Shown: one piece after another, positions 2,104 through 52,077 of the stretch
Layout of the letters: each line of letters opens with the position of its first letter
Numbering within the stretch: position 1 is the first letter of the stretch
Virus record (IMG/VR): IMGVR_UViG_3300023222_000219
Location: 1 to 54,179 of that record
DNA: 54,179 nt
Direction: 5' to 3' (one strand)
Source of the DNA: a virus
Lineage: Duplodnaviria > Caudoviricetes
Program-made: the position numbers and the translations under genes
Notes under the pieces: model-generated
Databases searched by the model: none
What the model was told of the DNA's origin: nothing
Seen by the model: the letters and a program-made list of their open reading frames with translations, nothing else

Positions 2104-2708
2104 TGTCTCAAGAAATTAAAGCAATTGAAACTCATTATGATGGCTATCGATTCAGAAGCAGATTAGAGGCTCGTTGGGCTGTGTTTTTTAATGCTGTAGG
2201 GCTTGAATATGAGTATGAAAAAGAGGGCTTTGAGCTTTCTAGGAGGTATTTGCCTGATTTTTGGTTGCCTCAACTTGAATGCTGGATTGAGATTAAAGGT
2301 GAACATATAACAGAACGAGATATTACATTATGTAAAGAATTAGCGGAACACACAGACACAACCGTTTATCTGATAGAAAAGCTGCCAAGTAGCAAGCCTT
2401 TCGCAATATACTTTCCACGCGAATACGAATATGAAACCGGTCATCTGTCTCGAGATTGTTACTGGGTCGAATCCCCATGTTGTCGAAAAATTTACATTGA
2501 TGATTCTACTTTAAATAATGAGGGATATTTTAATTATGGCAAAACACACTGGTGTACATGCTTGTTTCTTTATAGTCCCACAATCCTTATTCACAAAGAT
2601 AATCATTTTTTAGAAGAATGTTACAAATTGTCCAAAATGGCAAGGTTTGAGCATGGAGAAATACCAAGCACCGAAAAACACCCAGATTATGCAAGGCGTA
2701 TTAAATAA
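2103..2708 (+). CDS. PD-(D/E)XK nuclease-family protein
   Basis: AIETHYDGYRFRSRLEARWAVFF, YLPDFWLP, WIEIKG motifs. Confidence 0.8.
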   Translation: MSQEIKAIETHYDGYRFRSRLEARWAVFFNAVGLEYEYEKEGFELSRRYLPDFWLPQLECWIEIKGEHITERDITLCKELAEHTDTTVYLIEKLPSSKPFAIYFPREYEYETGHLSRDCYWVESPCCRKIYIDDSTLNNEGYFNYGKTHWCTCLFLYSPTILIHKDNHFLEECYKLSKMARFEHGEIPSTEKHPDYARRIK

Positions 2709-3448
2709 TGGCAAGATCTAGGAATCTTAAGCCAGGATCTTGTGACAACGAGGTCTTAGCTGACTTGAGCCCACATATAAGGTTGTTATGGGCATTTCTA
2801 CCTTGCCATGCAGATTGTGAGGGAAAGCTAGAAGATAGGCCCCAAAGACTTCACATCAAGATATTCCCTTATGAGCCAAAATTGAAATTCAATGGCATGC
2901 TGCAAGCGCTTCATGACAACAAATTCATAACCAGATATGAGGTCGATGGGGAAAAATTCATATGGATTAACAAATTTTTAGACCACCAATCACCGACCAA
3001 GAAAGAAAGGGAAAAAGGGTCTGATTTCCCCGATTATGATCCAAATTCCCATGGGACAGTACCGGAACAGAACGGGGATAGTACCGGTCTGGCCTTAACC
3101 CTTAACCCTAAACCCTTAACCCTAAACCCTAAACCCGCAGAGCTTGAAAATAAAATTAATGAAATTGGTGAATATTATAAAAACAATATAAATCCAACAG
3201 AAATATCGTCAGGGAAAAGGAACTTAAAAAAAATAGCGACAACATCAAATATCGACAACTTATTTCAATACGTCAAAAACTACCATCAGACAACAAAACA
3301 TAATTCAGGAACTCAATACAAAATCAGAATGAGAAATTTTTTCGGAAGAGATCGCAGATTTGAAGATTACAAAGAATTTGTCAATCCAAGCCAATATTCA
3401 AAAGATCCAGACGTATTTGAATTACCAAAATTAGGTGATAGACGATGA
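2708..3448 (+). CDS. Phage replication initiator / replisome organiser
   Basis: MARSRNLKP...ADCEG.LED N-terminal family signature, low-complexity linker, directly upstream of helicase. Confidence 0.75.
   Translation: MARSRNLKPGSCDNEVLADLSPHIRLLWAFLPCHADCEGKLEDRPQRLHIKIFPYEPKLKFNGMLQALHDNKFITRYEVDGEKFIWINKFLDHQSPTKKEREKGSDFPDYDPNSHGTVPEQNGDSTGLALTLNPKPLTLNPKPAELENKINEIGEYYKNNINPTEISSGKRNLKKIATTSNIDNLFQYVKNYHQTTKHNSGTQYKIRMRNFFGRDRRFEDYKEFVNPSQYSKDPDVFELPKLGDRR
3053..3136 (+). repeat. Iteron-like pair plus 7-bp tandem repeat inside the initiator gene
   Basis: GGGAYAGTACCGG at 3053 and 3075; six CCT(T/A)AAC units at 3093-3134. Confidence 0.75.
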
Positions 3449-6226: not shown

Positions 6227-6591
6227 TGAGAGATATTTTCACGCCAGAATTTGAACAACATGCAATCAATCACCCGTTGATGGGATTGCCCTTAAAAGGG
6301 AGCGGAGGTTGTTATTTCATTCCGTTTACTAATAAAAAAGATAAAACTATTTTCTTGCAAGTTGTGGCCGACATTGGTGAAGGTTGGGATCATGTGAGCG
6401 TTTCATTGACTCATCGTTGCCCCAATTGGCTCGAAATGGATTACATTAAAAGATTGTTTTTTGAAGAAAAAGAAGTTGCTTATCAATTGCATGTCCAAAC
6501 AGAGAAACACATAAGAATTCACGATTATTGCCTTCATCTTTGGAGGCCACAAGATCAAGAGATTCCATTGCCACCAAGGATAATGGTCTAA
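6226..6591 (+). CDS. Conserved phage protein (GWDHVSVS family)
   Basis: GWDHVSVS..RCPNW.EM..IK.LFF...QLH......HDYCLHLWRP. Confidence 0.75.
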   Translation: MRDIFTPEFEQHAINHPLMGLPLKGSGGCYFIPFTNKKDKTIFLQVVADIGEGWDHVSVSLTHRCPNWLEMDYIKRLFFEEKEVAYQLHVQTEKHIRIHDYCLHLWRPQDQEIPLPPRIMV

Positions 6592-7364
6592 TGTGGATAG
6601 TCCCGAAAAACCACCCACTCCACCAAGAATTCTTTCCTTCTGTTCCGGTTACGGAGGAATCGAAATTGGTCTTGAAAGAGTGTTTGGAAAAATCAACGTC
6701 CTCGCTCATGTGGAAATCGAAGCCTATGCAATTGCAAACCTTATCAAGAATATGGAATCGGGCGAAATGGCTCCAAGTCCTATCTGGACGAATCTTAAAA
6801 CCTTGCCGCTGGGCCCCTTTCGAGGAAAGGTTGAAATCCTCACTGGTGGCTATCCCTGTCAACCATTTAGTAGCGCAGGAAAAAGACTTGGAGAAGAAGA
6901 CCCAAGGCACCTTTGGCCCTATTTCAGAACAGCAATCGACATTATTCGACCTGGATTGTGTTTCTTCGAGAATGTCGAAGGGCATATTACCGAAGGGCTC
7001 TATGACGTACTCGATGACTTGGGAGGCTTGGGTTATCAATCGACGTGGGGAATTTTTAGTGCGTCGGAATGTGGTTTCAACCACGAAAGGCAAAGAATAT
7101 TTATCCTTGCCGACTCCGGTAGCTTGCGATTACAAGGGCATTCAAAAGATTGTAATCACAAAGACAGGGCCCAAGCTTTACAGAAAAAACACAGGTCTAT
7201 ATTTCTCCCCGAAAGTGAGGGACATTCTGGAATATGGACACACGAAGGATTTCAAAGCGAACCCGTCGTTCCTCGAGGAAATGATGGGCTTAAAAGTTGG
7301 GTGGACAGATTTAGAATCTTGGGTAATGGAGTCGTTCCAAAAACAGCAGAAAAAGCATTTATAA
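6591..7364 (+). CDS. Overlapping-frame ORF, probable second (beta-like) methyltransferase chain
   Basis: 257 open codons from an ATG that overlaps the upstream stop; LPTPVACDYKG and NPSFLEEMMGLKVGWTD (motif IX-like). Confidence 0.6.
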   Translation: MWIVPKNHPLHQEFFPSVPVTEESKLVLKECLEKSTSSLMWKSKPMQLQTLSRIWNRAKWLQVLSGRILKPCRWAPFEERLKSSLVAIPVNHLVAQEKDLEKKTQGTFGPISEQQSTLFDLDCVSSRMSKGILPKGSMTYSMTWEAWVINRRGEFLVRRNVVSTTKGKEYLSLPTPVACDYKGIQKIVITKTGPKLYRKNTGLYFSPKVRDILEYGHTKDFKANPSFLEEMMGLKVGWTDLESWVMESFQKQQKKHL

Positions 7365-7390
7365 CATTAACAAAGGAACTAGCTAGATAA
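6593..7390 (+). CDS. DNA (cytosine-5) methyltransferase, catalytic (alpha-like) chain
   Basis: Motif I FCSGYGG, IV GGYPCQPFS, VI ENV, VIII HERQRIF, X LGNGVVP; no clear motif IX in this frame. Confidence 0.9.
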   Translation: MDSPEKPPTPPRILSFCSGYGGIEIGLERVFGKINVLAHVEIEAYAIANLIKNMESGEMAPSPIWTNLKTLPLGPFRGKVEILTGGYPCQPFSSAGKRLGEEDPRHLWPYFRTAIDIIRPGLCFFENVEGHITEGLYDVLDDLGGLGYQSTWGIFSASECGFNHERQRIFILADSGSLRLQGHSKDCNHKDRAQALQKKHRSIFLPESEGHSGIWTHEGFQSEPVVPRGNDGLKSWVDRFRILGNGVVPKTAEKAFITLTKELAR

Positions 7391-10140: not shown

Positions 10141-10328
10141 AAGGCTTCACTGATTCGGAAATGAAATGTTTCAAATGCGAATACGTTGGAAAGTTCATTG
10201 AAGGATTAGAAGTCAACAAAACGCAATGGAAAAGAAATTTTTTAAATCAAATATTCAACCATCAAGATAATTATTTATGTCCAGTTTGTGGACAATATAC
10301 AACCAATTGGCAGCAGATAGCCCTTTAG
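10137..10328 (+). CDS. Small zinc-ribbon protein
   Basis: CFKC ... CPVCG. Confidence 0.55.
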   Translation: MKGFTDSEMKCFKCEYVGKFIEGLEVNKTQWKRNFLNQIFNHQDNYLCPVCGQYTTNWQQIAL

Positions 10329-11257
10329 ACAAGACCGCAAGCCATTCCAATAATTGAATCCTCTTCTTCACAATGACTATAAATATTCGCTGTAATAAAT
10401 GTCGTTTCATGATCCACTAATTTACTCACAGTCTGCAAAGGAACCCCATCAGCCAATTTATGAGAAACGAATGAATGACGTGTCGAGTGTGGGGTATAGC
10501 CTTTCTTATCAAATCCACAATCAGAACATGTTTTTTTAAAGAATTTAAGGGCCGCAGCATAAGACCATTGCTTGTTCATATTCGATTTGAAAATAAAGCC
10601 AGAATCAAAGCTTTTAACCCAACTTTGAAGATCTGTTTTAAAGCTTGCAACTTGCTTGATCAGAATGCCCTCAGAATCGAAATAAGGCATTAATTTCGAA
10701 CATTCTTTATTACCTTTAGCAATGTAATTGATTCGTATGCCGTTGTTCTCGAAATGCACGTCCTTTGTTTGAATTCCCAAAACTGAGGATATTCTTAAAC
10801 CATAAAGCCTTAAAATGGCAAAGAATAAATGATTCCTCATATCCATACAGCTTTCGTTTTTCTTTGAGTTCAGAAATTCAGAAATTAAGCTTAAGTCGTC
10901 TTTCTTGATAGGTTTCTTGTGTGAATATTTGCTTTTGATTGATTTGATCTTTTCAGCAACATTTTTTATTTCAAGATTGTGGTCAGGGTCAGATAGTTCT
11001 TTGAACATGGCTTTGATTGCAGACAAACGCGCTTTCAAGGTAGTTGGCTTAATGTTATTCAGAACACAATCAGCTAGATAATCTTTGATATCCATTGAAG
11101 TTACTTTGCTTAAAGCCTTGTCTCCTATGTATTTAAGAAAGAGCGTAAGCCTGTTTTTGTAAGCTTCAATTGTTTTTTCTGCAATGTATTGCTTTTCAAT
11201 TAATTGGTTCCTAGATACCGCTTTTAGGTAGATTTCCAAGATAAATTCGTTTTTCAT
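10325..11257 (-). CDS. Tyrosine recombinase/integrase (XerC/D-like)
   Basis: SAM-like N-domain; GLRISS (R), KGNK, HSTRHSF, DH....T..IY catalytic residues. Confidence 0.92.
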   Translation of the reverse strand: MKNEFILEIYLKAVSRNQLIEKQYIAEKTIEAYKNRLTLFLKYIGDKALSKVTSMDIKDYLADCVLNNIKPTTLKARLSAIKAMFKELSDPDHNLEIKNVAEKIKSIKSKYSHKKPIKKDDLSLISEFLNSKKNESCMDMRNHLFFAILRLYGLRISSVLGIQTKDVHFENNGIRINYIAKGNKECSKLMPYFDSEGILIKQVASFKTDLQSWVKSFDSGFIFKSNMNKQWSYAAALKFFKKTCSDCGFDKKGYTPHSTRHSFVSHKLADGVPLQTVSKLVDHETTFITANIYSHCEEEDSIIGMACGLV

Positions 11258-18796: not shown

Positions 18797-18992
18797 ACAC
18801 AAACTATTGAAACCATGTCCTTTTTGTGGTGACTTAGCATGGCTAAACCAACAGTCCACCCTACGTCATTGTGTGGCCCTTATTGCTTTGGTGAAGCCGA
18901 AACGGTTAACGGCAATTGGTAACCCACAACACAACCCAAATAAATCCCAAACTAGAAATAGGAGTAAAAATGAAATTCGCAGTGAGAAATAG
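18789..18992 (+). pseudogene. Lar-like (restriction alleviation) N-terminal remnant
   Basis: LKPCPFCG start, then loses the second CxxC and WN motif. Confidence 0.4.
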
Positions 18993-19758
18993 CTACACAA
19001 ATAACATTCAATTCACAGCAGAGATTGACTGTGATGTGAGTAAAAGTTTTTTTTTTAAATTAGGCCTTGCTGCTAAGTGGGCGCTTAAATTTAGGGCATA
19101 TCTCAAAGGGGCAAATCTCGAAGGGGCATATCTCAAAGGGGCAAATCTCGAAGGGGCAAATCTCGAAGGGGCATATCTCAAAGGGGCATATCTCAAAGGG
19201 GCAAATCTCGAAGGGGCAAATCTCAAATGGGCATATCTCAAAGGGGCAAATCTCGAAGGGGCAAATCTCAAAGGGGCAAATCTCGAAGGGGCAAATCTCG
19301 AAGGGGCAAATCTCGAAGGGGCAAATCTCGAAGGGGCATATCTCGAAGGGGCAAATCTCGAAGGGGCAAATCTCAAAGGGGCATATCTCGAAGGGGCAAA
19401 TCTCAAATGGGCAAATCTCGAAGGGGCAGATCTCGAAGGGGCAAATCTCAAAGGGGCAGATCTCAATGTCCCATTCATTAAAGATATTAATAAAAAAGTT
19501 TATGAAGTAACTGATCAAGAAGGGAACTGTTTAAACATGGCGCAATGGCACTCATGTGAAACAACACATTGCCATGCTGGATGGGTGATAATTATCGCAG
19601 GAGAAGAGGGGCTTAAACTCGAAAAAAGAATAGGAACAGCAGCAGCAGCTTACGCAATTTATTGGAAGAGTGATCCTGAAATGAAAATGGTTCCTGATTT
19701 TTATTGTGACAATCAAACGGCTATGGCAGATATTAAGAAAAGGGCAGGTGTGAAATGA
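18970..19758 (+). CDS. Pentapeptide-repeat protein
   Basis: AGGAG RBS before ATG 18970; ~25 A(N/Y/D)L(E/K)(G/W) units; C-domain LNM..WH.CETTHC.AGW. Confidence 0.9.
   Translation: MKFAVRNSYTNNIQFTAEIDCDVSKSFFFKLGLAAKWALKFRAYLKGANLEGAYLKGANLEGANLEGAYLKGAYLKGANLEGANLKWAYLKGANLEGANLKGANLEGANLEGANLEGANLEGAYLEGANLEGANLKGAYLEGANLKWANLEGADLEGANLKGADLNVPFIKDINKKVYEVTDQEGNCLNMAQWHSCETTHCHAGWVIIIAGEEGLKLEKRIGTAAAAYAIYWKSDPEMKMVPDFYCDNQTAMADIKKRAGVK
19096..19466 (+). repeat. 15-bp tandem repeat, ~25 near-identical units
   Basis: GCA(A/T/G)ATCTC(G/A)AA(G/T)GG repeated. Confidence 0.95.
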
Positions 19759-19993: not shown

Positions 19994-20475
19994 CTCACCT
20001 CGACAAGAGCGCAGAGGAAATTAACAAGCTGAGTGCTTTAATGTGTTTAGGCGAACGTTATGAAGATGAGTTTGGTCACGGTTATTATTATTTTAAAGAT
20101 AAGTATTTTTGGGAGGGGATTCACCCACACGCAGAGAGCGCCAAGAATGAGGCTTTAGAAGTTGGTCATTTCATCTGGAATCCTTGCGACCCCAACTCAA
20201 ACCAAATCCAGACTTATTTGATCCCGGCTTTGTTTGAGAAAGCACCGTATGATTATGACAATAAATTACGTATTGAACAACTACAAGATGGTTGGCACGT
20301 AGCTGTTATATTGTCTACAGATTCTATACCAACTGAGGACGACCCGTTTTCTCTGCCATGTACTATAAGAGTTTACGGTACCTGTGATGACATAACTCAA
20401 CTCAACAAAACAATAGCAGCCGCGATACTGGAAGCAGCTGAGATTATCAAAGGAGAAAATAATGGAAATAGTTAA
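19990..20475 (+). CDS. Hypothetical protein, ABA-sandwich/NinX-like
   Basis: EEINKL.A ... WNPC ... IAAAILEA. Confidence 0.5.
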   Translation: MTHLDKSAEEINKLSALMCLGERYEDEFGHGYYYFKDKYFWEGIHPHAESAKNEALEVGHFIWNPCDPNSNQIQTYLIPALFEKAPYDYDNKLRIEQLQDGWHVAVILSTDSIPTEDDPFSLPCTIRVYGTCDDITQLNKTIAAAILEAAEIIKGENNGNS

Positions 20476-20773
20476 ATTTAAAGATCAAACATGGCAGGAA
20501 ATACCCGATCACCAGAATCCAGCTATGATGAAAAACGGATTCGGAGAAACAGAAGAATGTATTATGATCTGTAAAGATAACCGTCAACGTGTAAACGCTA
20601 ATAGTTTTTTAGTTATCCATGTTCAGCCTGACACTGACATTACTCAAAAAGGTTGTTTCTGGAAATTTGAAGACGCTGAATTGTTCGCAAGTGCTTTTAA
20701 AGTGTTTTTGGTGAAATTGAATTTAGAGTTAGCCACATTAGAATCCGACGATAAATTGAAGGGGGAGGAATGA
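20462..20773 (+). CDS. Hypothetical protein
   Basis: AAGGAG RBS. Confidence 0.65.
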   Translation: MEIVKFKDQTWQEIPDHQNPAMMKNGFGETEECIMICKDNRQRVNANSFLVIHVQPDTDITQKGCFWKFEDAELFASAFKVFLVKLNLELATLESDDKLKGEE

Positions 20774-20985
20774 GTAAGTGGAGATCAATGGAATCAGCGC
20801 CGCTTGACGGTGAAATGGTGATTGGATTTGTCGGAGGTGAAGAAGTCTTATGTAGATACAACACTGAATCGAGGACGTGATCAGGGGCCGGAGGTGGAGT
20901 TCACCCTTGTCTTGGCCCAGGTTGGGAAGACGATTATAACGGATATTATATTGATGACCCTGAAAAATGGAGGCCAGATGAGTAA
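20770..20985 (+). CDS. DUF551-like protein with in-frame UGA (candidate selenoprotein/readthrough, or pseudogene)
   Basis: GGAGG RBS; MSKWRSMESAPLDG...RT*SGAGGGVHPCLGPGW...PEKWRP; UGA at 20878-20880; overlaps both neighbouring genes. Confidence 0.65.
20881..20918 (+). promoter_or_regulatory. SECIS-like hairpin directly 3' of UGA
   Basis: GGGCC/GGCCC lower stem, GGTGG/TCACC upper stem, apical loop AGT beginning 17 nt after the UGA. Confidence 0.45.
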
Positions 20986-21154
20986 CCACAACATGACCCA
21001 AAAAAATAAACCCAACAGCGAAGAAGAGAACGAGAAATACTGGGCAGACGTTATTAAAATCTGCGAAGAGAAGGGCTTGAACTATGACTGGGCCTCTGAG
21101 CGCATGGCCGCAATGGATTTATTAGATGGGGGGTATGAAATTGATAAACGCTGA
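20978..21154 (+). CDS. Hypothetical protein
   Basis: GGAGG RBS before ATG 20978. Confidence 0.5.
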   Translation: MSNHNMTQKNKPNSEEENEKYWADVIKICEEKGLNYDWASERMAAMDLLDGGYEIDKR

Positions 21155-22488: not shown

Positions 22489-22575
22489 GGGGAGGTAACT
22501 CAGTGGCAGAGTACCATCATGAACGGCCGTTCTTTAGAATGGAAGTCGCAGGTTCGAGTCCTGCCCTCCCCTCCA
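22489..22575 (+). tRNA. tRNA-like element with expanded anticodon arm (identity undetermined)
   Basis: Acceptor GGGGAGG/CCTCCCC + T-CCA; D arm ACTC-AGTGGCA-GAGT; T arm GCAGG-TTCGAGT-CCTGC; anticodon arm 29 nt instead of 17. Confidence 0.75.
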
Positions 22576-25685: not shown

Positions 25686-25756
25686 CTTACTGAATACTTA
25701 CTGAACATTTACTGAATACTTACTGAACATTTACTGAATACTTACTTAATGCTTAC
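25686..25756 (+). repeat. 11-bp tandem repeat, 6.5 copies
   Basis: (C/T)TTACTGAA(T/C)A units in non-coding DNA. Confidence 0.9.
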
Positions 25757-28987: not shown

Positions 28988-30421
28988 ATGGTTAGCGTTG
29001 CTGGATATCAACCAGGGGACGAAGCCATAAGAGCTCACAAAAGCCTCGCACGAATCCGGTGTCTGATTTGGGGAATTAAAAGCGGAAAGACTGAATGGGG
29101 CGCTTGCGAAATTGTCAGATTCGCAATGAAAAATTCAAATAAATTGGCCTGGTGCGTAAGTTCATCATTTAATAATCTTGGAGCCTGTTTCGTAGCGATT
29201 AAAAAATTACTCGATTATTACAAAGTTGGTTATAAATATAAGATTGCAGAACATGCTTATCATTTAACCAATGGAAGCATTATCGCTTGTAGATCAGGCG
29301 ATCAATATGACAATTTACGTGGCCCAAACGTTGATTTCCTTTGGATTGATGAGGCTGCATATGTCAAGGAGGAAGCTTGGTTTATCTGTGAAGATAGACT
29401 GGCGGCCACTGAGGGCGATATCATTTTGACCACAACTACCGACACAAGAAATTGGATTTGGGACTTATGCCTCGATGGCGGAATGCCTCCGTCTATGGAA
29501 TATGGTGTTTTTCAAAGTAAAGGTGAAAACGGCAAACGAGATCATAGGTATTTTATAAGTCATTGGCCAACGTGGCACTTTCCATGGGTTTCTGAAGAAT
29601 GGATTGCAAATGTAAAGAAAAAAAGACCTAGATCCATATTTGATAGAGATATTGGGGCCCTATTTACTTCTCACGGAACAGCCGTTTTTAATTATCTTTG
29701 GGAAGCCTTATCTCGAGCGCCACTTGTGAAAAGTAACGATGCTAAATATGTAATTGGATTAGACCTTGCCAAAGAACAAGATTTCACAGTATTAACCATA
29801 ATGGACGGTGACGGGCGAGTTTTCAAGGTTTTACGTTTTCAAAAAATAGATTATAGGATTCAAGTCAAAAGAATTGCCGAGCAAGCCAAGCTTTGGAATG
29901 CCTGTGTTGTTCTCGATAAAGCCAATGTAGGAAACGTTATTCAAGAGCTTTTAAGAGAGGAAAAGGTACAAATTCAATGTGTCGATATGAACAGCTCAGA
30001 AGTCAAAACTTCTTTGATTCAATCTCTTCAGATAGCATTTGAGAACAAATCTATCAAATTAATTGATCCAAAATCTCTATGGGGAACCAGAGAAGATAAA
30101 CAAATGTATGAGGAACTTGGTTATTATGCCACGAAATTAACGCCGGGAAGAAAACAATTAAGTTATGGAGCTCCAAGTGGATTTCATGACGATTGCGTGG
30201 TTTCTATTGCCTTGGCAAATTGGGGAAGAGTTAGAGGTTTTGCCGGTGGTGGAATGTCGGCTCAACAGGTGGCCGTAGGAGTGAAGGAGTGGGAAGCATT
30301 ACTCAGTCGAGCAAAAGACAAGAAAAATTTAATGAGACCACGAAACCTAAATCTGTTAAAAAGGTATTATGACAATAAAACTCGACTTGGTTTCAAGTCT
30401 GGTGGGACGTTTTGGAGGTAA
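28988..30421 (+). CDS. terL: Terminase large subunit
   Basis: GIKSGKT, LRG..DFLWIDEAA, IGLDLAKEQDFT, HDDCVVS.ALA. Confidence 0.95.
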   Translation: MVSVAGYQPGDEAIRAHKSLARIRCLIWGIKSGKTEWGACEIVRFAMKNSNKLAWCVSSSFNNLGACFVAIKKLLDYYKVGYKYKIAEHAYHLTNGSIIACRSGDQYDNLRGPNVDFLWIDEAAYVKEEAWFICEDRLAATEGDIILTTTTDTRNWIWDLCLDGGMPPSMEYGVFQSKGENGKRDHRYFISHWPTWHFPWVSEEWIANVKKKRPRSIFDRDIGALFTSHGTAVFNYLWEALSRAPLVKSNDAKYVIGLDLAKEQDFTVLTIMDGDGRVFKVLRFQKIDYRIQVKRIAEQAKLWNACVVLDKANVGNVIQELLREEKVQIQCVDMNSSEVKTSLIQSLQIAFENKSIKLIDPKSLWGTREDKQMYEELGYYATKLTPGRKQLSYGAPSGFHDDCVVSIALANWGRVRGFAGGGMSAQQVAVGVKEWEALLSRAKDKKNLMRPRNLNLLKRYYDNKTRLGFKSGGTFWR

Positions 30422-30426
30422 AAAAA

Positions 30427-31842
30427 ATGGGTTGGTTTAGAAAAGACAAAAACTTACAAGAATCGAACAAAGATAAACCCACTGGTTCTGGTTCCGGATC
30501 ACCTCGTTTCAAGAAACTCAATAAAATGACAGAGCAAATATTTGCAACAGGTGAAGACCTCGATGCCGGGACGGAATTTAGCGATATCTTTTTTAAAAAA
30601 ATCTCCGGAACTCCCGAACTTGATTTACCACCACAAACACTTAGAAAAGCTCAAAGACTTGCAATGCTTTTATATCGTAAAAACGCTAGGGCTTGGAGCG
30701 GAACCGAAGTTTTTAAGGATTTCGCTTTAGGTGACGGAATCAAATTCAAAGCTAAAGACCCTAAAGTCCAAGAAGTCTTGGACGAGCATTGGAAAATGAA
30801 TGAATGGGAGGACAAACTTGAGGAGAGAATGCGTGGCCTTGCTTTAATGGGTGAACAAGCATATCCCGCATTTATTAATAAAAATACAGGATTAGTAAGG
30901 CTTTCGTCAGTATCTCCTTTAAAAATAAAAGGGATTAGAAGGAATCCGGAAGACGCAGAAGACTTGCTTGAAGTCCTTACAGAGTTCAAACCTAAAGAGC
31001 CATTCGAAATTATTAAAATCAATGATGAAGGACAATTAGAAGGAAGTATTTTCTATTTTCCAGTTAATCGCGTAAGTGGCGGGACTCGTGGAGTTCCTGA
31101 TATGTTGCCTTCTGTTGATTGGCTCGAGGGCCTTGACGGTATGCTTTTCGCACTTATGGAAAGAAGTTCATTATCTCAGGACATTGTTTTTGATCTCGAA
31201 TATAAAGGCGCAGATGAAGGCGAATGTCGAAAAATGGCTTTGGAATTTATCGCAAGCTTAAAAGAGGGCGGGGCATACGCTCATAACGAAAACGTCAAGC
31301 TCACAATCATGGCTCCAAACTTGGCAGCCTCCGAAGCTGAAATAGTAATCTCAATATTACTCCGTCAAATTCAAGCCGGAATGAGATTGGCCGGTTTATT
31401 TTTCGGTGACGCTGAAGATTTAACAAAAGGAAGTGCAAGCGAATTGTCTATGCCAGTTGCAAAGGCCATAAGAGCAAGACAAAATGTTTGGATACGAATT
31501 TTTACAAAAATATTTGAATATCAAATTCAGAAGTCAAAGGAAGCCGGTAGATTGGATGGCGTCGAAGATTTTGGCTTTAAAATATCAATGGATCCGGTTC
31601 TTTTAAGGGACGTTAAAACAATAACAGCGGCCTTGATTGATTTGACTACCACATTAACAAATGCGGTCCAAGAGGATTACATTACAAATCCAGAAGCCGC
31701 CGAAATTTATAGAAAAGCATTGCAACAGCTTGGAAGCCTCATGGACGAATTTGATCCTGAAAAATCCTCTGATATTGAAGACCTTAAAAGAAGATTCTTA
31801 AAAAATGAAGATGACGACGAAGGCGATCCAAAGGAAGCTTAA
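30427..31842 (+). CDS. Portal protein
   Basis: Position after terL, ~470 aa, RG.PD.....DWL motif; likely ATG 30427 after GGAGG. Confidence 0.8.
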   Translation: MGWFRKDKNLQESNKDKPTGSGSGSPRFKKLNKMTEQIFATGEDLDAGTEFSDIFFKKISGTPELDLPPQTLRKAQRLAMLLYRKNARAWSGTEVFKDFALGDGIKFKAKDPKVQEVLDEHWKMNEWEDKLEERMRGLALMGEQAYPAFINKNTGLVRLSSVSPLKIKGIRRNPEDAEDLLEVLTEFKPKEPFEIIKINDEGQLEGSIFYFPVNRVSGGTRGVPDMLPSVDWLEGLDGMLFALMERSSLSQDIVFDLEYKGADEGECRKMALEFIASLKEGGAYAHNENVKLTIMAPNLAASEAEIVISILLRQIQAGMRLAGLFFGDAEDLTKGSASELSMPVAKAIRARQNVWIRIFTKIFEYQIQKSKEAGRLDGVEDFGFKISMDPVLLRDVKTITAALIDLTTTLTNAVQEDYITNPEAAEIYRKALQQLGSLMDEFDPEKSSDIEDLKRRFLKNEDDDEGDPKEA

Positions 31843-35155: not shown

Positions 35156-37642
35156 ATGAAACAATTTCTAGAAAAAAGTAGCGTCTTACTTTTACATGAT
35201 ATCGACGGAAAAACTGGCAAAGAATGGGATGTTGTTCTCATTGAATCCGGACTGTCTTTAAACAATAGATTTTATTCAAACGAAGTATTGGAAAGAAGTG
35301 TTAGTCTTTTTGAAGGTGTCAAATGTTGCGCTTTCTTAGAGGGTAATGAACTTAATCACCGCAATCAAAACAATGCTCGAAGAAATCCTTCCGGACCATC
35401 ACGGAATACCGTTGGTTGGTTTGAAAATGTAAGATTTGAAGAATTTCAAAGACCTGACGGCACAAAAGGTCACGGTATCATTGCGAGATTTCACATTCTA
35501 CCTAGTCAAACATGGTTAATGGAAGACTTGAAAGATTCCTTTAGCCATGGAAAATCCGATTTATTAGGTTTTTCTATAGACGCTCACGGCGAATCGCGTG
35601 GCGGAATGATTAACGGAAAAGAAGCTCTTATTGTTGAAAAAATCACACAAGTTGAATCAACCGACGTTGTCACGAGTCCAGCAGCCGGAGGCGGTGTTCT
35701 CCGCATTGCTGCAAGTGAAGAAAAGGGAAATCAAGGTATGAAAAATATTAAAAAATTTGCCGAGAAACTTGGAATTAAACAAAAAGAAGGTGAGAGTGAC
35801 GAAGATTTCACTTCAAGAGTTTTAGAGGCAAAAGTTCCTTTAAAAGAAGAAAACCCGCTTGGCGATTTCATACGAAAAATTTCTGAAGAAAAAGGCATTT
35901 CGACAACCGTCTTAGCCGAAACAGCAGATTTAGACAAAGGTCAATTGGCTTTAATTATGAGTGGAAAAATAAAACGACCACCAGACGCAAGACTTAAAAA
36001 AATGGCTGCCTCTTTGGGGGTCTCATTCGAAGAACTTAAAAACAAAATCCCCGAAAGCGTCAAAGAAGTTGACGGAGCATTTATAACTGATCATGAAACG
36101 GAGTTTGAAATGAAAACTAAAGAAGAAATTAAAGAAGCTGAAAAGAAGCTTGCAGAAGATCAAAAGGCTTCAAGAATTAAAGACGGCGAACTCCTGGTCA
36201 GAGAATGTTTGATTGGGTCTGATTTGCCCGAAAAAGCAAAAGAAAAAATAACAGAAAAATTTAAAGACAAAGAAGACGTCACGGAAGATCAAATTAAAGA
36301 GGCCATTAAGTCTGAAAAAGAATACATTGCTTCTTTTAAAGAAGGAACAGGCAAGGTCAATGGCCTTGGTGATGCTCATGATGACAACGCAGATGACGCA
36401 ACACGTATTAAAGTAAGTGAAAGTCAAAATGAAAAATTCGGCAAAGCTTGGGACGGATTCTATGAAGGCGAAAATATTGACGGAGTTCCAAAATTCCATA
36501 ATTTGAATGAAGCTTGGAGAGCATACAACGAAAACAATAAAAATGCACATGGAAGCCGCGAATTCGTGTCTCTCAATATTTTTGAATGCATGCACCGGTC
36601 TTTCCCGAAAAAAATTATGTATGATTTCGGTGACCCTTATGTCCAGCATGCACAAAAACTAAAAGAAAGTTGGGATCGAGGATCTTCCGATTGTTTGCAG
36701 GAGGCAACGATAACAAGCGATTTTGCCGTGGGTTTTGGTCAAGCTATGTTTCGCAGATTGCAAAAAGAATACACTCAAGATCCTAGAAACGATTGGCGTC
36801 AAATCATTTCAGGCATTGAAAACCTTCAAGACGCAACAAACACATTCTCAATTGTTAGAACTGGTGAAACAAAAGAATTGCCAGTTGTTGGACAAGGTGC
36901 GCCATACCAAGAATTACACCCAGACAGAGCGGAAGAGGTTGAAGTTATCCAGCCTTCTAAACGTGGTGGCTTGGAAGTCGTGACCTGGGAAGACGTTTTG
37001 GCAGACAACATCGGGATTGTTAAAAAGATTCCAAGAAATTTGGCCAGAGCATCAAACCTAACCATTCATAAATTGGTTTGGGATCAAATTGAATTAAATC
37101 CAAACATGCAAGACGGTTTTGCTTTGTTTGATGACACAAATCACAGTAACGATTTGTCAGGAGCGGGGGCGCTTTCATATGCAAACTCAGTTCTCTCAAT
37201 AGTAAAATTACGGAATCAATTGGCCTTTGAATCAGGCGAAAAGCTTGGATTAATGCCAGCGTGGTTATTCACTTCAGTTGATCAAGAAGCTAAAGGTGAA
37301 GAAATCATTGGTTCAGACAGAAAAGAAACTTCGTCAGAAGACGCTACAATCGATAACGTTTTGAAAAAGAAATTTCTCATGCGAGCACTTGGAACGATTG
37401 GTCTTGGAAGAACTTCCGGAACCAAAAATTTCTGGTATATCGCTGCAAGCGGTAAAGACGCTGACACAATTGCCGTTGGTTTCTTGGGTGGTCGTGATAG
37501 ACCTGACATTTTCGTCCAAGGTGTTGACACTCCGACAGCCGGATCAATGTTTGATGCAGACAAAATAACTTACAAAATAAGATTAGTTGTAGGCGCAAGA
37601 GTTGTGGACCACCGTTGGATTCAACGCTCTGCAAACGTGTAA
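35156..37642 (+). CDS. Fused prohead protease - HTH - scaffold - major capsid protein (Mu gpT-like C-domain)
   Basis: G.S.NNRFY, GFSI, STDVVTSPAAGG protease; coiled scaffold; LP.V..GAPY.E, KRGG...VTWE..LAD, D.ITYKIR....RVVDHR capsid motifs. Confidence 0.85.
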   Translation: MKQFLEKSSVLLLHDIDGKTGKEWDVVLIESGLSLNNRFYSNEVLERSVSLFEGVKCCAFLEGNELNHRNQNNARRNPSGPSRNTVGWFENVRFEEFQRPDGTKGHGIIARFHILPSQTWLMEDLKDSFSHGKSDLLGFSIDAHGESRGGMINGKEALIVEKITQVESTDVVTSPAAGGGVLRIAASEEKGNQGMKNIKKFAEKLGIKQKEGESDEDFTSRVLEAKVPLKEENPLGDFIRKISEEKGISTTVLAETADLDKGQLALIMSGKIKRPPDARLKKMAASLGVSFEELKNKIPESVKEVDGAFITDHETEFEMKTKEEIKEAEKKLAEDQKASRIKDGELLVRECLIGSDLPEKAKEKITEKFKDKEDVTEDQIKEAIKSEKEYIASFKEGTGKVNGLGDAHDDNADDATRIKVSESQNEKFGKAWDGFYEGENIDGVPKFHNLNEAWRAYNENNKNAHGSREFVSLNIFECMHRSFPKKIMYDFGDPYVQHAQKLKESWDRGSSDCLQEATITSDFAVGFGQAMFRRLQKEYTQDPRNDWRQIISGIENLQDATNTFSIVRTGETKELPVVGQGAPYQELHPDRAEEVEVIQPSKRGGLEVVTWEDVLADNIGIVKKIPRNLARASNLTIHKLVWDQIELNPNMQDGFALFDDTNHSNDLSGAGALSYANSVLSIVKLRNQLAFESGEKLGLMPAWLFTSVDQEAKGEEIIGSDRKETSSEDATIDNVLKKKFLMRALGTIGLGRTSGTKNFWYIAASGKDADTIAVGFLGGRDRPDIFVQGVDTPTAGSMFDADKITYKIRLVVGARVVDHRWIQRSANV

Positions 37643-50527: not shown

Positions 50528-50740
50528 ATGAATCAATGTAATAAGGGCCATTGGAAAATTTGGTTTAAAACAGTCAATTGCCCTTTGTGCGAAAAAAGAG
50601 AGGAAAACCCCGAACAAGTTAAAAAAAGACTAATCAGACAGGTTAAGAAGGTACTGGAAGAAACTAACAAACTTGAGAAAATTATTTTTGGAAACATTAA
50701 AGAAATTAATGAATTAGAAGAGAAAAAGGAGCAAGAATGA
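50528..50740 (+). CDS. Small Zn-ribbon/coiled-coil protein
   Basis: AAGGA RBS; CNKGH.......CPLC. Confidence 0.55.
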   Translation: MNQCNKGHWKIWFKTVNCPLCEKREENPEQVKKRLIRQVKKVLEETNKLEKIIFGNIKEINELEEKKEQE

Positions 50741-52077
50741 AGATTCAAAAAATAACAACAGAGAATTTTATGAAAGTTAAATTCGCAGAAGTCAATTTTG
50801 ATGATGAAGGCAATTTGATAATCATTGGAGGCGATAACGGGCAAGGCAAGACTAGTTTTTTAAATTCAATTGAGACTCTATTGGGTGGCACTAGAAACAT
50901 GCCGTCAGATCCCATAAGAAAAGGATCTGAAAAGGCCAGTATTGTTGCAGAACTTAAATCAGAAGACGGTGATCCATATGAAGATTTGATAGTTGAAAGA
51001 ACTATTCTTCCAAATAAAAAAACAAGTTTAAAAGTTAAATCGAAAACAAAAAAAGGCGCAAAATATAGTCAATCAATGTTATTTGAAATCATTGGCGCTT
51101 TAGCCTTTGACCCTTTGGCTTTCAAAAATATGGATATGAAGGCACAGGTCGATCATTTAAAAGACACATTCAAAATCGACTTTTCAGATCTTGAAAAAGA
51201 TTACAAGGAGAGTTTTCTAATCAGGACCGATTTAAATCGTGAAATCAAAAGTTTAGAAGCTTATTTGGACGCCAAACCAATTTATGAAGACGTTCCAAGC
51301 GAAGTTGTTTCAGTTGTTGAATTGTCGACAGAATTGGAAGAAGCGAGACTTCACAACGTTTCCAATCAAAACAAACTTGATCAGCTTGAAGGAATGCTGG
51401 AAAGAGAAAATAAAATCGTAGAAGAAAGCCAGTTAATTTTAAGTCATATTCAAGAATGCAAACAGAAAATAAAAAATTTGGAGAACGATTTTAAGGAAAA
51501 CGAAGAATCAACCAATATTCTCCACGACGACATAATAAATATAAAAAAAATAATTGCAAAATCAGAAGATAAAGATCTCGAAGAGTTCCGTGAAAAAATC
51601 AAAAACTCTGAAGAAATCAATGAAAAGATACGTTCCAATATAGGTAGAAAAGAACACACAGATAAAGTCAAAGAGAAATGTGAAGCCGAAAACAAGCTCA
51701 CTAAAAAACTCGAAAAGCTCAAAGCGGATAAAAAAGACCTTCTTGAAAAAGCAAACTTTCCAGTTAAAGGACTAGGATTCAATGAAACAGGTGTTGTTTT
51801 AAATGATCTTCCATTCAAGCAAGCGTCGGGGGCCGAACAGCTAAAGACATCGATCGCCCTTGCCATTGCTGCAAATCCAAATCTCAAAGTATTTCTAATT
51901 CGTGATGGGTCATTGCTCGATAAAAAGAGCGTCAAACTCATTGCAAAAATGGCTGAAAAAGCAGATTGTCAAGTGTTGATTGAAATGGTTGGCGAAGATA
52001 GTGGAATGACTATTGTCTTTGAAGACGGAGAGATTAAACAGCAATCTAAAACGAAGACTTCCAAGGCCAAATCATGA
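50737..52077 (+). CDS. SMC/Rad50-like AAA ATPase
   Basis: GDNGQGKTS Walker A, long coiled coil, ASGAEQ signature, IRDGSLLD. Confidence 0.85.
   Translation: MKIQKITTENFMKVKFAEVNFDDEGNLIIIGGDNGQGKTSFLNSIETLLGGTRNMPSDPIRKGSEKASIVAELKSEDGDPYEDLIVERTILPNKKTSLKVKSKTKKGAKYSQSMLFEIIGALAFDPLAFKNMDMKAQVDHLKDTFKIDFSDLEKDYKESFLIRTDLNREIKSLEAYLDAKPIYEDVPSEVVSVVELSTELEEARLHNVSNQNKLDQLEGMLERENKIVEESQLILSHIQECKQKIKNLENDFKENEESTNILHDDIINIKKIIAKSEDKDLEEFREKIKNSEEINEKIRSNIGRKEHTDKVKEKCEAENKLTKKLEKLKADKKDLLEKANFPVKGLGFNETGVVLNDLPFKQASGAEQLKTSIALAIAANPNLKVFLIRDGSLLDKKSVKLIAKMAEKADCQVLIEMVGEDSGMTIVFEDGEIKQQSKTKTSKAKS

Follow-up and report, generated by a model that had tools for sequence, protein, structure and literature searches.

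Is an in-frame TGA in the middle of a small phage gene read as selenocysteine (Sec), read through by an ordinary tRNA, or simply a stop? The question is raised by a frame of 71 codons which an earlier reading of the sequence had singled out as a candidate phage selenoprotein or a case of programmed readthrough. The window analysed here is the whole of a virus record, 54,179 bp long with direct terminal repeats. Its G+C content is 38.5%, and nearly all of its genes lie on the + strand. The genome encodes a large terminase (TerL), a portal, a capsid-protease fusion, a tape-measure protein and a long pentapeptide-repeat protein, and carries a tyrosine integrase gene at 10325-11257 on the - strand. 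The structural genes together with the integrase therefore make it look like a temperate phage of the siphovirus type. By crude gene calling, TGA terminates 33 of 94 genes and is a working, ordinary stop in this genome; with the standard code, 92% of it is coding. No paralogue of the split gene was found in it. The features of the locus are as follows.

20462..20773, + strand: upstream gene of 103 aa, without known family, whose own TGA overlaps the start of the split frame (ATGA)
20760..20769, + strand: purine-rich ribosome-binding stretch AGGGGGAGGA, with GGAGG at 20764-20768, 1 nt ahead of the ATG (read from the sequence)
20770..20985, + strand: small DUF551-like phage gene, 71 codons plus TAA, interrupted by TGA at codon 37 (translation)
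20770..20877, + strand: N-terminal 36 codons, with motifs W..M..AP.DG and R29; A10, P11, D13 and G14 invariant (alignment)
20878..20880, + strand: the in-frame TGA, codon 37, in the column of the near-invariant family Cys (R-x-C; HMM alignment)
20881..20982, + strand: C-terminal 34 codons (GPGWEDDYNG...P..WRP), open and conserved; G51, W52, P64 and W67 invariant
20885..20918, + strand: hairpin after the TGA, with lower stem GGGCCG/UGGCCC, upper stem of 4 bp and loop GAGUU (fold)
20983-20985, + strand: TAA terminating the full-length frame (sequence)
20978..21154, + strand: next small gene; its ATG lies within the end of the full-length frame (ATGAGTAA), and it has its own GGAGG at 20969-20973

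The translation of the 71-codon frame, with its TGA at 20878-20880 and TAA at 20983-20985, agrees letter for letter with the original prediction. As that prediction had noted, the full frame is missing from the list of open reading frames, which holds only the 36-aa piece 20770..20880. The N-terminal 36-codon piece is the sole product if the TGA terminates translation; the second half (20881..20982) was read without finding an in-frame ATG, GTG or TTG, and therefore could not be produced on its own. The predicted GGAGG ribosome-binding sequence is present, although the spacer to the ATG is just 1 nt. The overlaps with both neighbours were also as described: ATGA is shared with the ORF at 20462..20773, for which no significant match was obtained in Pfam or PHROG, and the end of the frame overlaps, within ATGAGTAA, the ATG at 20978. 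A frameshift into the open frame 20822-21154 was considered and ruled out, as the conserved residues sit in frame 0.

To which protein family the frame belongs was examined by an exhaustive search of 1.84 billion cluster-representative proteins. This gave 35 HMMER matches at E<=1e-3 (best 3.9e-11), 34 of which cover residues ~3-70 of the query as a single stretch through the stop. The 35th (P0031, 3375 aa) aligns with residues 21-43 only, is without the domain and is spurious. A profile search gave 32 matches, 23 of them further members and none a half-length fragment. Against an HMM made from the 34 homologues only, the query matched over residues 2-70 with 75.6 bits (E 1e-25). These alignments show, beyond what chance would give, that both halves of the split frame belong to one domain. 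The family signature is W..M..AP.DGT...G......IRWAE.R.CMLAG.GGGNGYFGPGWED..N.L..D.P..WRP. Its members carry no annotation beyond 'hypothetical protein'; one protein so named comes from an Amycolatopsis genome. Neither the product nor either half matched any family in PHROGs or, at E<=1, in Pfam. A word-based protein search and a single-protein viral scan gave no match for the product, and a phage database gave none for the locus, either as DNA (near and distant modes) or as protein.

The stop falls on the most conserved single Cys of this family. In the HMM alignment of the 34 homologues, made without the query, R35 falls on the invariant Arg and X37, the stop, on the Cys of R-x-C; a two-residue deletion follows X37. 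MAFFT, run with X at the stop, placed the X under the Met after the Cys, one column off, and the HMM alignment was preferred because it also aligns R35. Cys occupies the stop column in 33 of the 35 HMMER matches and in 23/23 further profile matches, that is, in 56 of 57 members. It is missing in P0028, a true member, and in the spurious P0031, which lies outside the 57. Whether homologues have Cys or UGA at position 37, the check proposed with the original prediction, is thereby answered for Cys at the protein level. At the DNA level, the five homologous loci have TGC (four loci) or TGT (one locus) in this column, and TGA was found in 0/5 of them (L001-L005), a small sample. In one of the five, L005, an in-frame TAA directly precedes the invariant Trp of the C-terminal part, and the family motif resumes after the TAA. 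TAA cannot encode Sec, and premature stops other than Sec codons therefore occur in the family.

A random single-base nonsense change within this gene would strike codon 37 in 1 of 43 paths, or in 1 of 17 of the paths that create a TGA. The position of the stop thus weighs some 17- to 43-fold in favour of an explanation specific to that position, and it is the sole evidence that truly favours Sec. The column has the form of a true Sec/Cys pair, yet a single TGY to TGA substitution would equally produce it.

The original prediction had called the product DUF551-type, with signatures on either side of the UGA. Both signatures were found and are shared with DUF551: one like W..AP.DG towards the N-terminus, the other P..W towards the C-terminus. 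The label itself fared less well: the Pfam DUF551 model (PF04448) matched 0/19 aligned members at E<=1, and the fold spoke for it only weakly. An AlphaFold2 model was made of one homologue (P0002) from an alignment (A5) of 34 sequences. The model is confident (mean pLDDT 88.3), and in it strands flank the Cys on both sides, with the Cys directly preceding a short helix. No solved structure in the PDB matched it at E<=0.001. Among its top 50 BFVD matches it weakly resembles many DUF551-annotated viral proteins (best E 2.2e-3, TM ~0.5), and its predicted fold may be similar to that of DUF551. In the ESM Atlas, 11% of the members of the nearest cluster are labelled DUF551 (score 0.89), which we take as a lead only. 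Because the Pfam model matched none of the 19 members and the resemblance in fold and cluster is weak, we name the family DUF551-like and not DUF551. Like DUF551, whose small phage and prophage proteins include YfdS of E. coli CPS-53, the split gene would encode a small protein of a phage early region; unlike DUF551, the family has a signature of its own, R-x-C-M-L-A-G-x-G-G-G-N-G-Y-F-G-P-G-W-E-D. What emerges is a compact family of phage proteins that had no annotation, recognisable by R-x-C...GPGWED and a new relative of the DUF551-like small phage proteins. DUF551 has been tied, through the prophage protein YfdS, to resistance to oxidative stress (available text of PMC10834534). Such a tie would fit a reactive Cys, and we offer it as a lead only.

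Four phages with a TerL 72-77% identical to that of the present phage share its structural module and are without the split gene and its neighbours (0/4 related phages, all four records being fragments by CheckV). The split gene is dispensable, because these four phages lack it; it belongs to the accessory genes, and the region around it is variable.

Taking these results together, we consider that the TGA is most likely, though far from certainly, a nonsense allele of a Cys-containing DUF551-like gene. A plain TGY to TGA nonsense change is the simplest reading. The TGT or TGC that relatives have for the conserved Cys would have become TGA by one substitution. The ribosome would then terminate at the TGA and release a 36-residue fragment, and this fragment would probably be inactive, as both halves contribute strands to the predicted beta-sheet and the domain could not form from one. 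On this reading the nonsense change would be recent and would have struck a dispensable accessory gene of the variable early region; its recency would account for a downstream half that is still intact and tightly packed between its neighbours. In favour of a nonsense change, TGA ends 33/94 genes, the Cys codons of all five homologous loci are each one step from TGA, none of the five has TGA in that column, and L005 bears a premature TAA. In favour of it, too, the hairpin is no better than that of synonymous recodings, the four related phages lack the gene, the phage has no sel genes, and the homologue model has strands on either side of the Cys.

Several observations count against a nonsense allele. 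The stop lies on the family's one near-invariant Cys, which by chance would happen in 1/43 (or 1/17) of cases. There is no decay elsewhere in the gene: no frameshift and no second stop were seen, and the HMM match of 75.6 bits is full-length. The coupled overlaps with both neighbours have been kept. As the assembled consensus has TGA, most of the sequenced population, if not all of it, carries this allele. In comparison with nonsense (opal) alleles of dispensable phage genes, the locus has in common with them a stop that a single substitution separates from the sense codon of relatives, absence of the gene from the nearest phages, and a second premature stop in the family (the TAA of L005). 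It is unlike typical opal alleles in that the stop hits the most conserved single Cys, reached by 1/43 of nonsense paths by chance.

That the codon is instead decoded as Sec is, in our judgement, improbable. SelB and Sec-tRNA(Sec) of a Sec-competent host would read the UGA by means of the hairpin directly downstream and yield a 71-residue selenoprotein. In this protein Sec would stand for the conserved, probably reactive Cys of the family. This reading draws on the position of the UGA, which falls on a near-invariant Cys (56/57 members) in an HMM made without the query, where a nonsense change would land by chance only once in 17 to 43 times; on the conservation of the ORF on both sides of the UGA; and on the homologue model, where the Cys lies just ahead of a short helix. 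The integrase makes expression from a prophage in the host plausible. Last, the hairpin satisfies all four consensus constraints for a bacterial SECIS (bSECIS), and its geometry resembles that of our control, the fdhF gene of E. coli.

The 40 nt after the TGA contain 26 G or C residues, a direct count that bears out the 65% originally claimed, against 39% in the surrounding 2 kb. They fold into the two-tier hairpin that had been described, with a G-containing loop, at -18.1 kcal/mol; the apical loop GAGUU lies 16 nt after the TGA. Compared with dinucleotide shuffles, the hairpin gave z -0.16, and compared with synonymous recodings sampled by the codon usage of the phage itself, z -0.4 to -1.2; its stability does not exceed chance. 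The genuine SECIS of E. coli fdhF, used as a control in the same stability test, gave z -0.5 to -1.0. Because the genuine element scores no better, the test of minimum free energy (MFE) is powerless either way.

The consensus bSECIS has, according to the available text of PMC13188914, a loop of 3-9 nt with G in its first two positions, an upper stem of 4-16 bp, an MFE of <= -7.5 kcal/mol and a distance of 16-37 nt from the UGA. For scanning we used our own coding of the constraints in the legend to Fig. 2 of that review, which is an approximation and not bSECISearch. The candidate passes, with a spacing of 16 nt, a 4-bp stem, G first in a 5-nt loop and -16.1 kcal/mol, as does the fdhF control (spacing 18 nt, -14.2 kcal/mol). 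Its stem length and spacing are at the lower limits of the bSECIS model, and its loop is without the common G[G/U] pattern; both count against Sec. The scan did not discriminate. Of 400 synonymous recodings of the same peptide, 385 passed, and 143 passing recodings (36% of recodings) folded at equal or lower energy. All five Cys-coding homologues passed downstream of their Cys codon, and 307/1250 TGA triplets on the + strand of the genome passed as well. No match to the Rfam SECIS models was found in 20700-21050, a weak negative since the models are gene-family specific; the control fdhF element was found by SECIS_2 at 87.1 bits.

The hairpin is uninformative, because nearly any coding of a Gly/Ala/Pro-rich peptide complies with the constraints, as does each of the five Cys-coding homologues. 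It arises as a side effect of the Gly, Ala and Pro codons in the family's loop, and neither supports nor refutes Sec. The SECIS-like geometry of the original prediction thus stands as a description and fails as a means of discrimination. These controls show that, where the coding sequence is rich in Gly, Ala and Pro codons, finding a bSECIS-like hairpin behind a UGA has no value as evidence.

The available text of PMC13188914 lists three standard filters for a new selenoprotein: Cys paired with Sec, a possible bSECIS, and homologues in other genomes that contain TGA. At the present locus there is a Cys/Sec pair and a potential but uninformative bSECIS, and TGA-containing homologues number 0/5 loci. 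Of the selenoprotein interpretation, the part concerning Cys at the UGA column accordingly held, while the hairpin lost its weight and no TGA-containing homologue came to light. In our literature searches no report of a phage selenoprotein was found, including in the available text of the reviews PMC8310308 and PMC13188914; in that of PMC13188914 neither 'phage' nor 'virus' occurs.

Compared with bacterial selenoprotein genes that have a SECIS within the ORF, such as E. coli fdhF (control L010), the split gene is alike in having UGA where homologues have Cys, in being conserved on both sides of the UGA, and in having a 3' hairpin whose apical loop starts with G (16 nt from the UGA here, 18 nt in fdhF). 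It is unlike fdhF in that no second TGA-containing homologue was found, there is no known Sec-competent host, and neither SECIS_2 nor SECIS_3 of Rfam, both of which find fdhF, matches it. Also in contrast to fdhF, the hairpin is found equally in Cys-coding relatives, and the family is without known redox function. Another comparison is with the glutathione peroxidases of molluscum contagiosum virus and fowlpox virus, since here too a viral gene would rely wholly on the Sec machinery of the host. In the fowlpox virus enzyme the SECIS lies inside the coding region (available text of PMC8310308). These poxviruses, however, are viruses of eukaryotes whose GPx genes were captured from cells and whose SECIS elements are of the eukaryotic kind, whereas the phage gene is of unknown function and no more than a candidate for Sec.

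Reliance on the host would be complete, as the original prediction had correctly stated that there are no sel genes in this genome: SelA, the SelB wing domain, SelD and tRNA-Sec all gave nothing above cut-off. The host was sought through relatives of the phage. Among 185,579 species-representative genomes none was found to hold a relative, either by the family or by a TerL profile, and the TerL homologues are all metagenomic proteins. In a database of cultured phages, the only match to the portal was Microcystis phage Mae-JY22 (27% identity, E 1e-34), which was also the sole match covering >=80% of the capsid-protease fusion, and the second-best match to an ATPase was Microcystis phage MaeS. 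The kinship of these nearest cultured relatives, as far as protein similarity goes, together with the long pentapeptide-repeat protein, weakly suggests a cyanobacterial host. In a survey of 2006, now old, neither Cyanobacteria nor Bacteroidetes were found to have the Sec-decoding trait (available text of PMC1794560). Sec machinery is perhaps unlikely to be available to the phage.

Were Sec decoding to hold, for which we see only a small chance, this would be the first bacteriophage selenoprotein: a DUF551-like protein of a temperate phage, in which the invariant Cys is replaced by Sec and decoded by host SelB. Selenoproteins would thereby be extended to bacteriophages. The Gly-rich loop would supply the hairpin ready-made in each member of the family, so that one TGY to TGA change would suffice for a selenoprotein gene, and the locus would show in practice how a hairpin already present in coding sequence permits a Cys to Sec codon change in one step. 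It would also point to a reactive Cys or Sec as the working part of the very common, functionally unknown DUF551-like proteins.

Leaky or programmed readthrough appears about as improbable as Sec. A near-cognate tRNA (for Trp or Cys) would read the UGA and give a little full-length protein, either tolerated or serving to control dosage. UGA is the leakiest stop in bacteria, the downstream half is intact and in frame, and there is a hairpin behind the UGA. Against this, no homologous locus has a stop at the column (0/5 loci), and the next base is U; in E. coli, U after UGA makes a strong termination context. Insertion of Trp for the near-invariant Cys would probably give a protein that does not work, the phage's only tRNA is without a UCA anticodon, and the hairpin is accounted for by the coding sequence. 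The readthrough by way of the hairpin put forward in the original prediction is therefore unsupported.

A little less probable still is an error of base calling or assembly, in which case codon 37 would in truth be TGT or TGC and the gene would be intact, like any other family member with Cys. The TGA is a single letter away from the codons at all five homologous loci, the remainder of the gene is perfect, and the genome is a metagenome-derived virus record. Against this, substitution errors are rare in consensus assemblies, and nothing else looks broken in the crude gene map, at 92% coding. One sequencing run (X1) contained 0.04 of the sampled words, and no RNA run was found to contain them; at 80% likeness, only short contigs of <95% likeness were obtained, with 20614-21014 uncovered.

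It is very improbable that UGA is reassigned throughout the genome (code 4 or 25) or that the phage encodes a UGA suppressor: both codes are refuted by the 33/94 genes that end in TGA and by the 92% coding already obtained with the standard code, and the one candidate for a suppressor, a peculiar tRNA 1.5 kb downstream of the split gene, has an anticodon loop reading UUA and not UCA and falls below the cut-off of the tRNA-Sec model. Explanations other than those discussed hold the rest of the probability.

The tRNA just mentioned, at 22489-22575, is the phage's single one. UUA is read in its only canonical anticodon loop, and it scores 21.5 bits against the tRNA-Sec model, for which the cut-off is 47. 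No similar tRNA was found in viral contigs, and it is without relation to the tRNA-Met of a relative (L006). A second in-frame TGA, at 1148-1150, was dropped from consideration, as the frame upstream of it reads non-protein-like. When TGA was taken as sense throughout, two pieces of >=60 aa were joined in one frame only; there the upstream gene runs on by chance into ORF 20822-21154, which is out of frame with the split gene.

One tRNA gene was found in the window.

22489-22575, + strand: tRNA gene, 87 nt

The gene scored 51.9 bits with the Rfam tRNA model, as against 21.5 bits with the tRNA-Sec model, which is below the cut-off of 47. Between its D arm and its anticodon arm are 13-14 extra nucleotides, within which lies the palindrome GAACGGCCGTTC. 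When these inserted nucleotides are left out, an anticodon stem CCGUU/AAUGG and a loop CUUUAGA can be read, giving the anticodon UUA. With this anticodon, the gene product is predicted to be an ochre-suppressor-type tRNA. In the same genome, TAA terminates 57 of the 94 crudely called genes. A search of viral contigs for tRNAs resembling this one found none.

An in-frame TAA was observed in one homologue of the Cys form, that is, with Cys at the column where the window's DUF551-like frame has TGA.

L005 (metagenome contig) 517-726: Cys-form family member with in-frame TAA

The TAA replaces the Glu of P-E-x-W; downstream of it the frame stays open over a long stretch and still encodes the conserved AWR. 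The predicted protein of this locus, P0060, terminates at the TAA.

The closest cultured relatives of the phage are Microcystis phages, as judged by protein matches at 27-35% identity.

30412-31842: gene matching Microcystis phages
35156-37642, + strand: protease-like and major-head protein, 828 aa; gene matching Microcystis phages
50737-52077: gene matching Microcystis phages

Microcystis phage Mae-JY22 provided the sole database match to the portal, and the sole match with at least 80% coverage to the capsid-protease fusion; Microcystis phage MaeS ranked second among the matches to an ATPase. The fusion is a single frame joining protease-like and major-head parts, and was assigned to the PHROG families 'head maturation protease' and 'major head and protease protein'.

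Among the long minus-strand ORFs, a family match was obtained only for a tyrosine integrase, whose presence implies that the phage would be temperate.

10325-11257, - strand: tyrosine integrase (Phage_integrase, E 1.7e-23)

Tandem repeats were present at three places.

3093-3136, + strand: CCTAAAC repeat, 7-bp unit, 6.3 copies, within ORF 2708-3448
18916-19758, + strand: pentapeptide-repeat protein, 280 aa, A-N-L-x-G units
25686-25756: CTTACTGAATA repeat, 11-bp unit, 6.5 copies, perfect as 22-bp units

The CCTAAAC unit is complementary to a telomere-like repeat of the plant type. The coding region of the pentapeptide-repeat protein contains a 15-bp tandem repeat (24.7 copies, 19094-19464), and several frames are open there on both strands. 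The CTTACTGAATA array may be an iteron or operator array.

Long ORFs also overlap at 6410-7390.

6528-7364 and 6593-7390, + strand: two long overlapping ORFs in different frames

The opposite strand of this region carries a further ORF of 215 aa. Since long ORFs overlap here on both strands, the sequence is suggested to be repetitive or compositionally odd.
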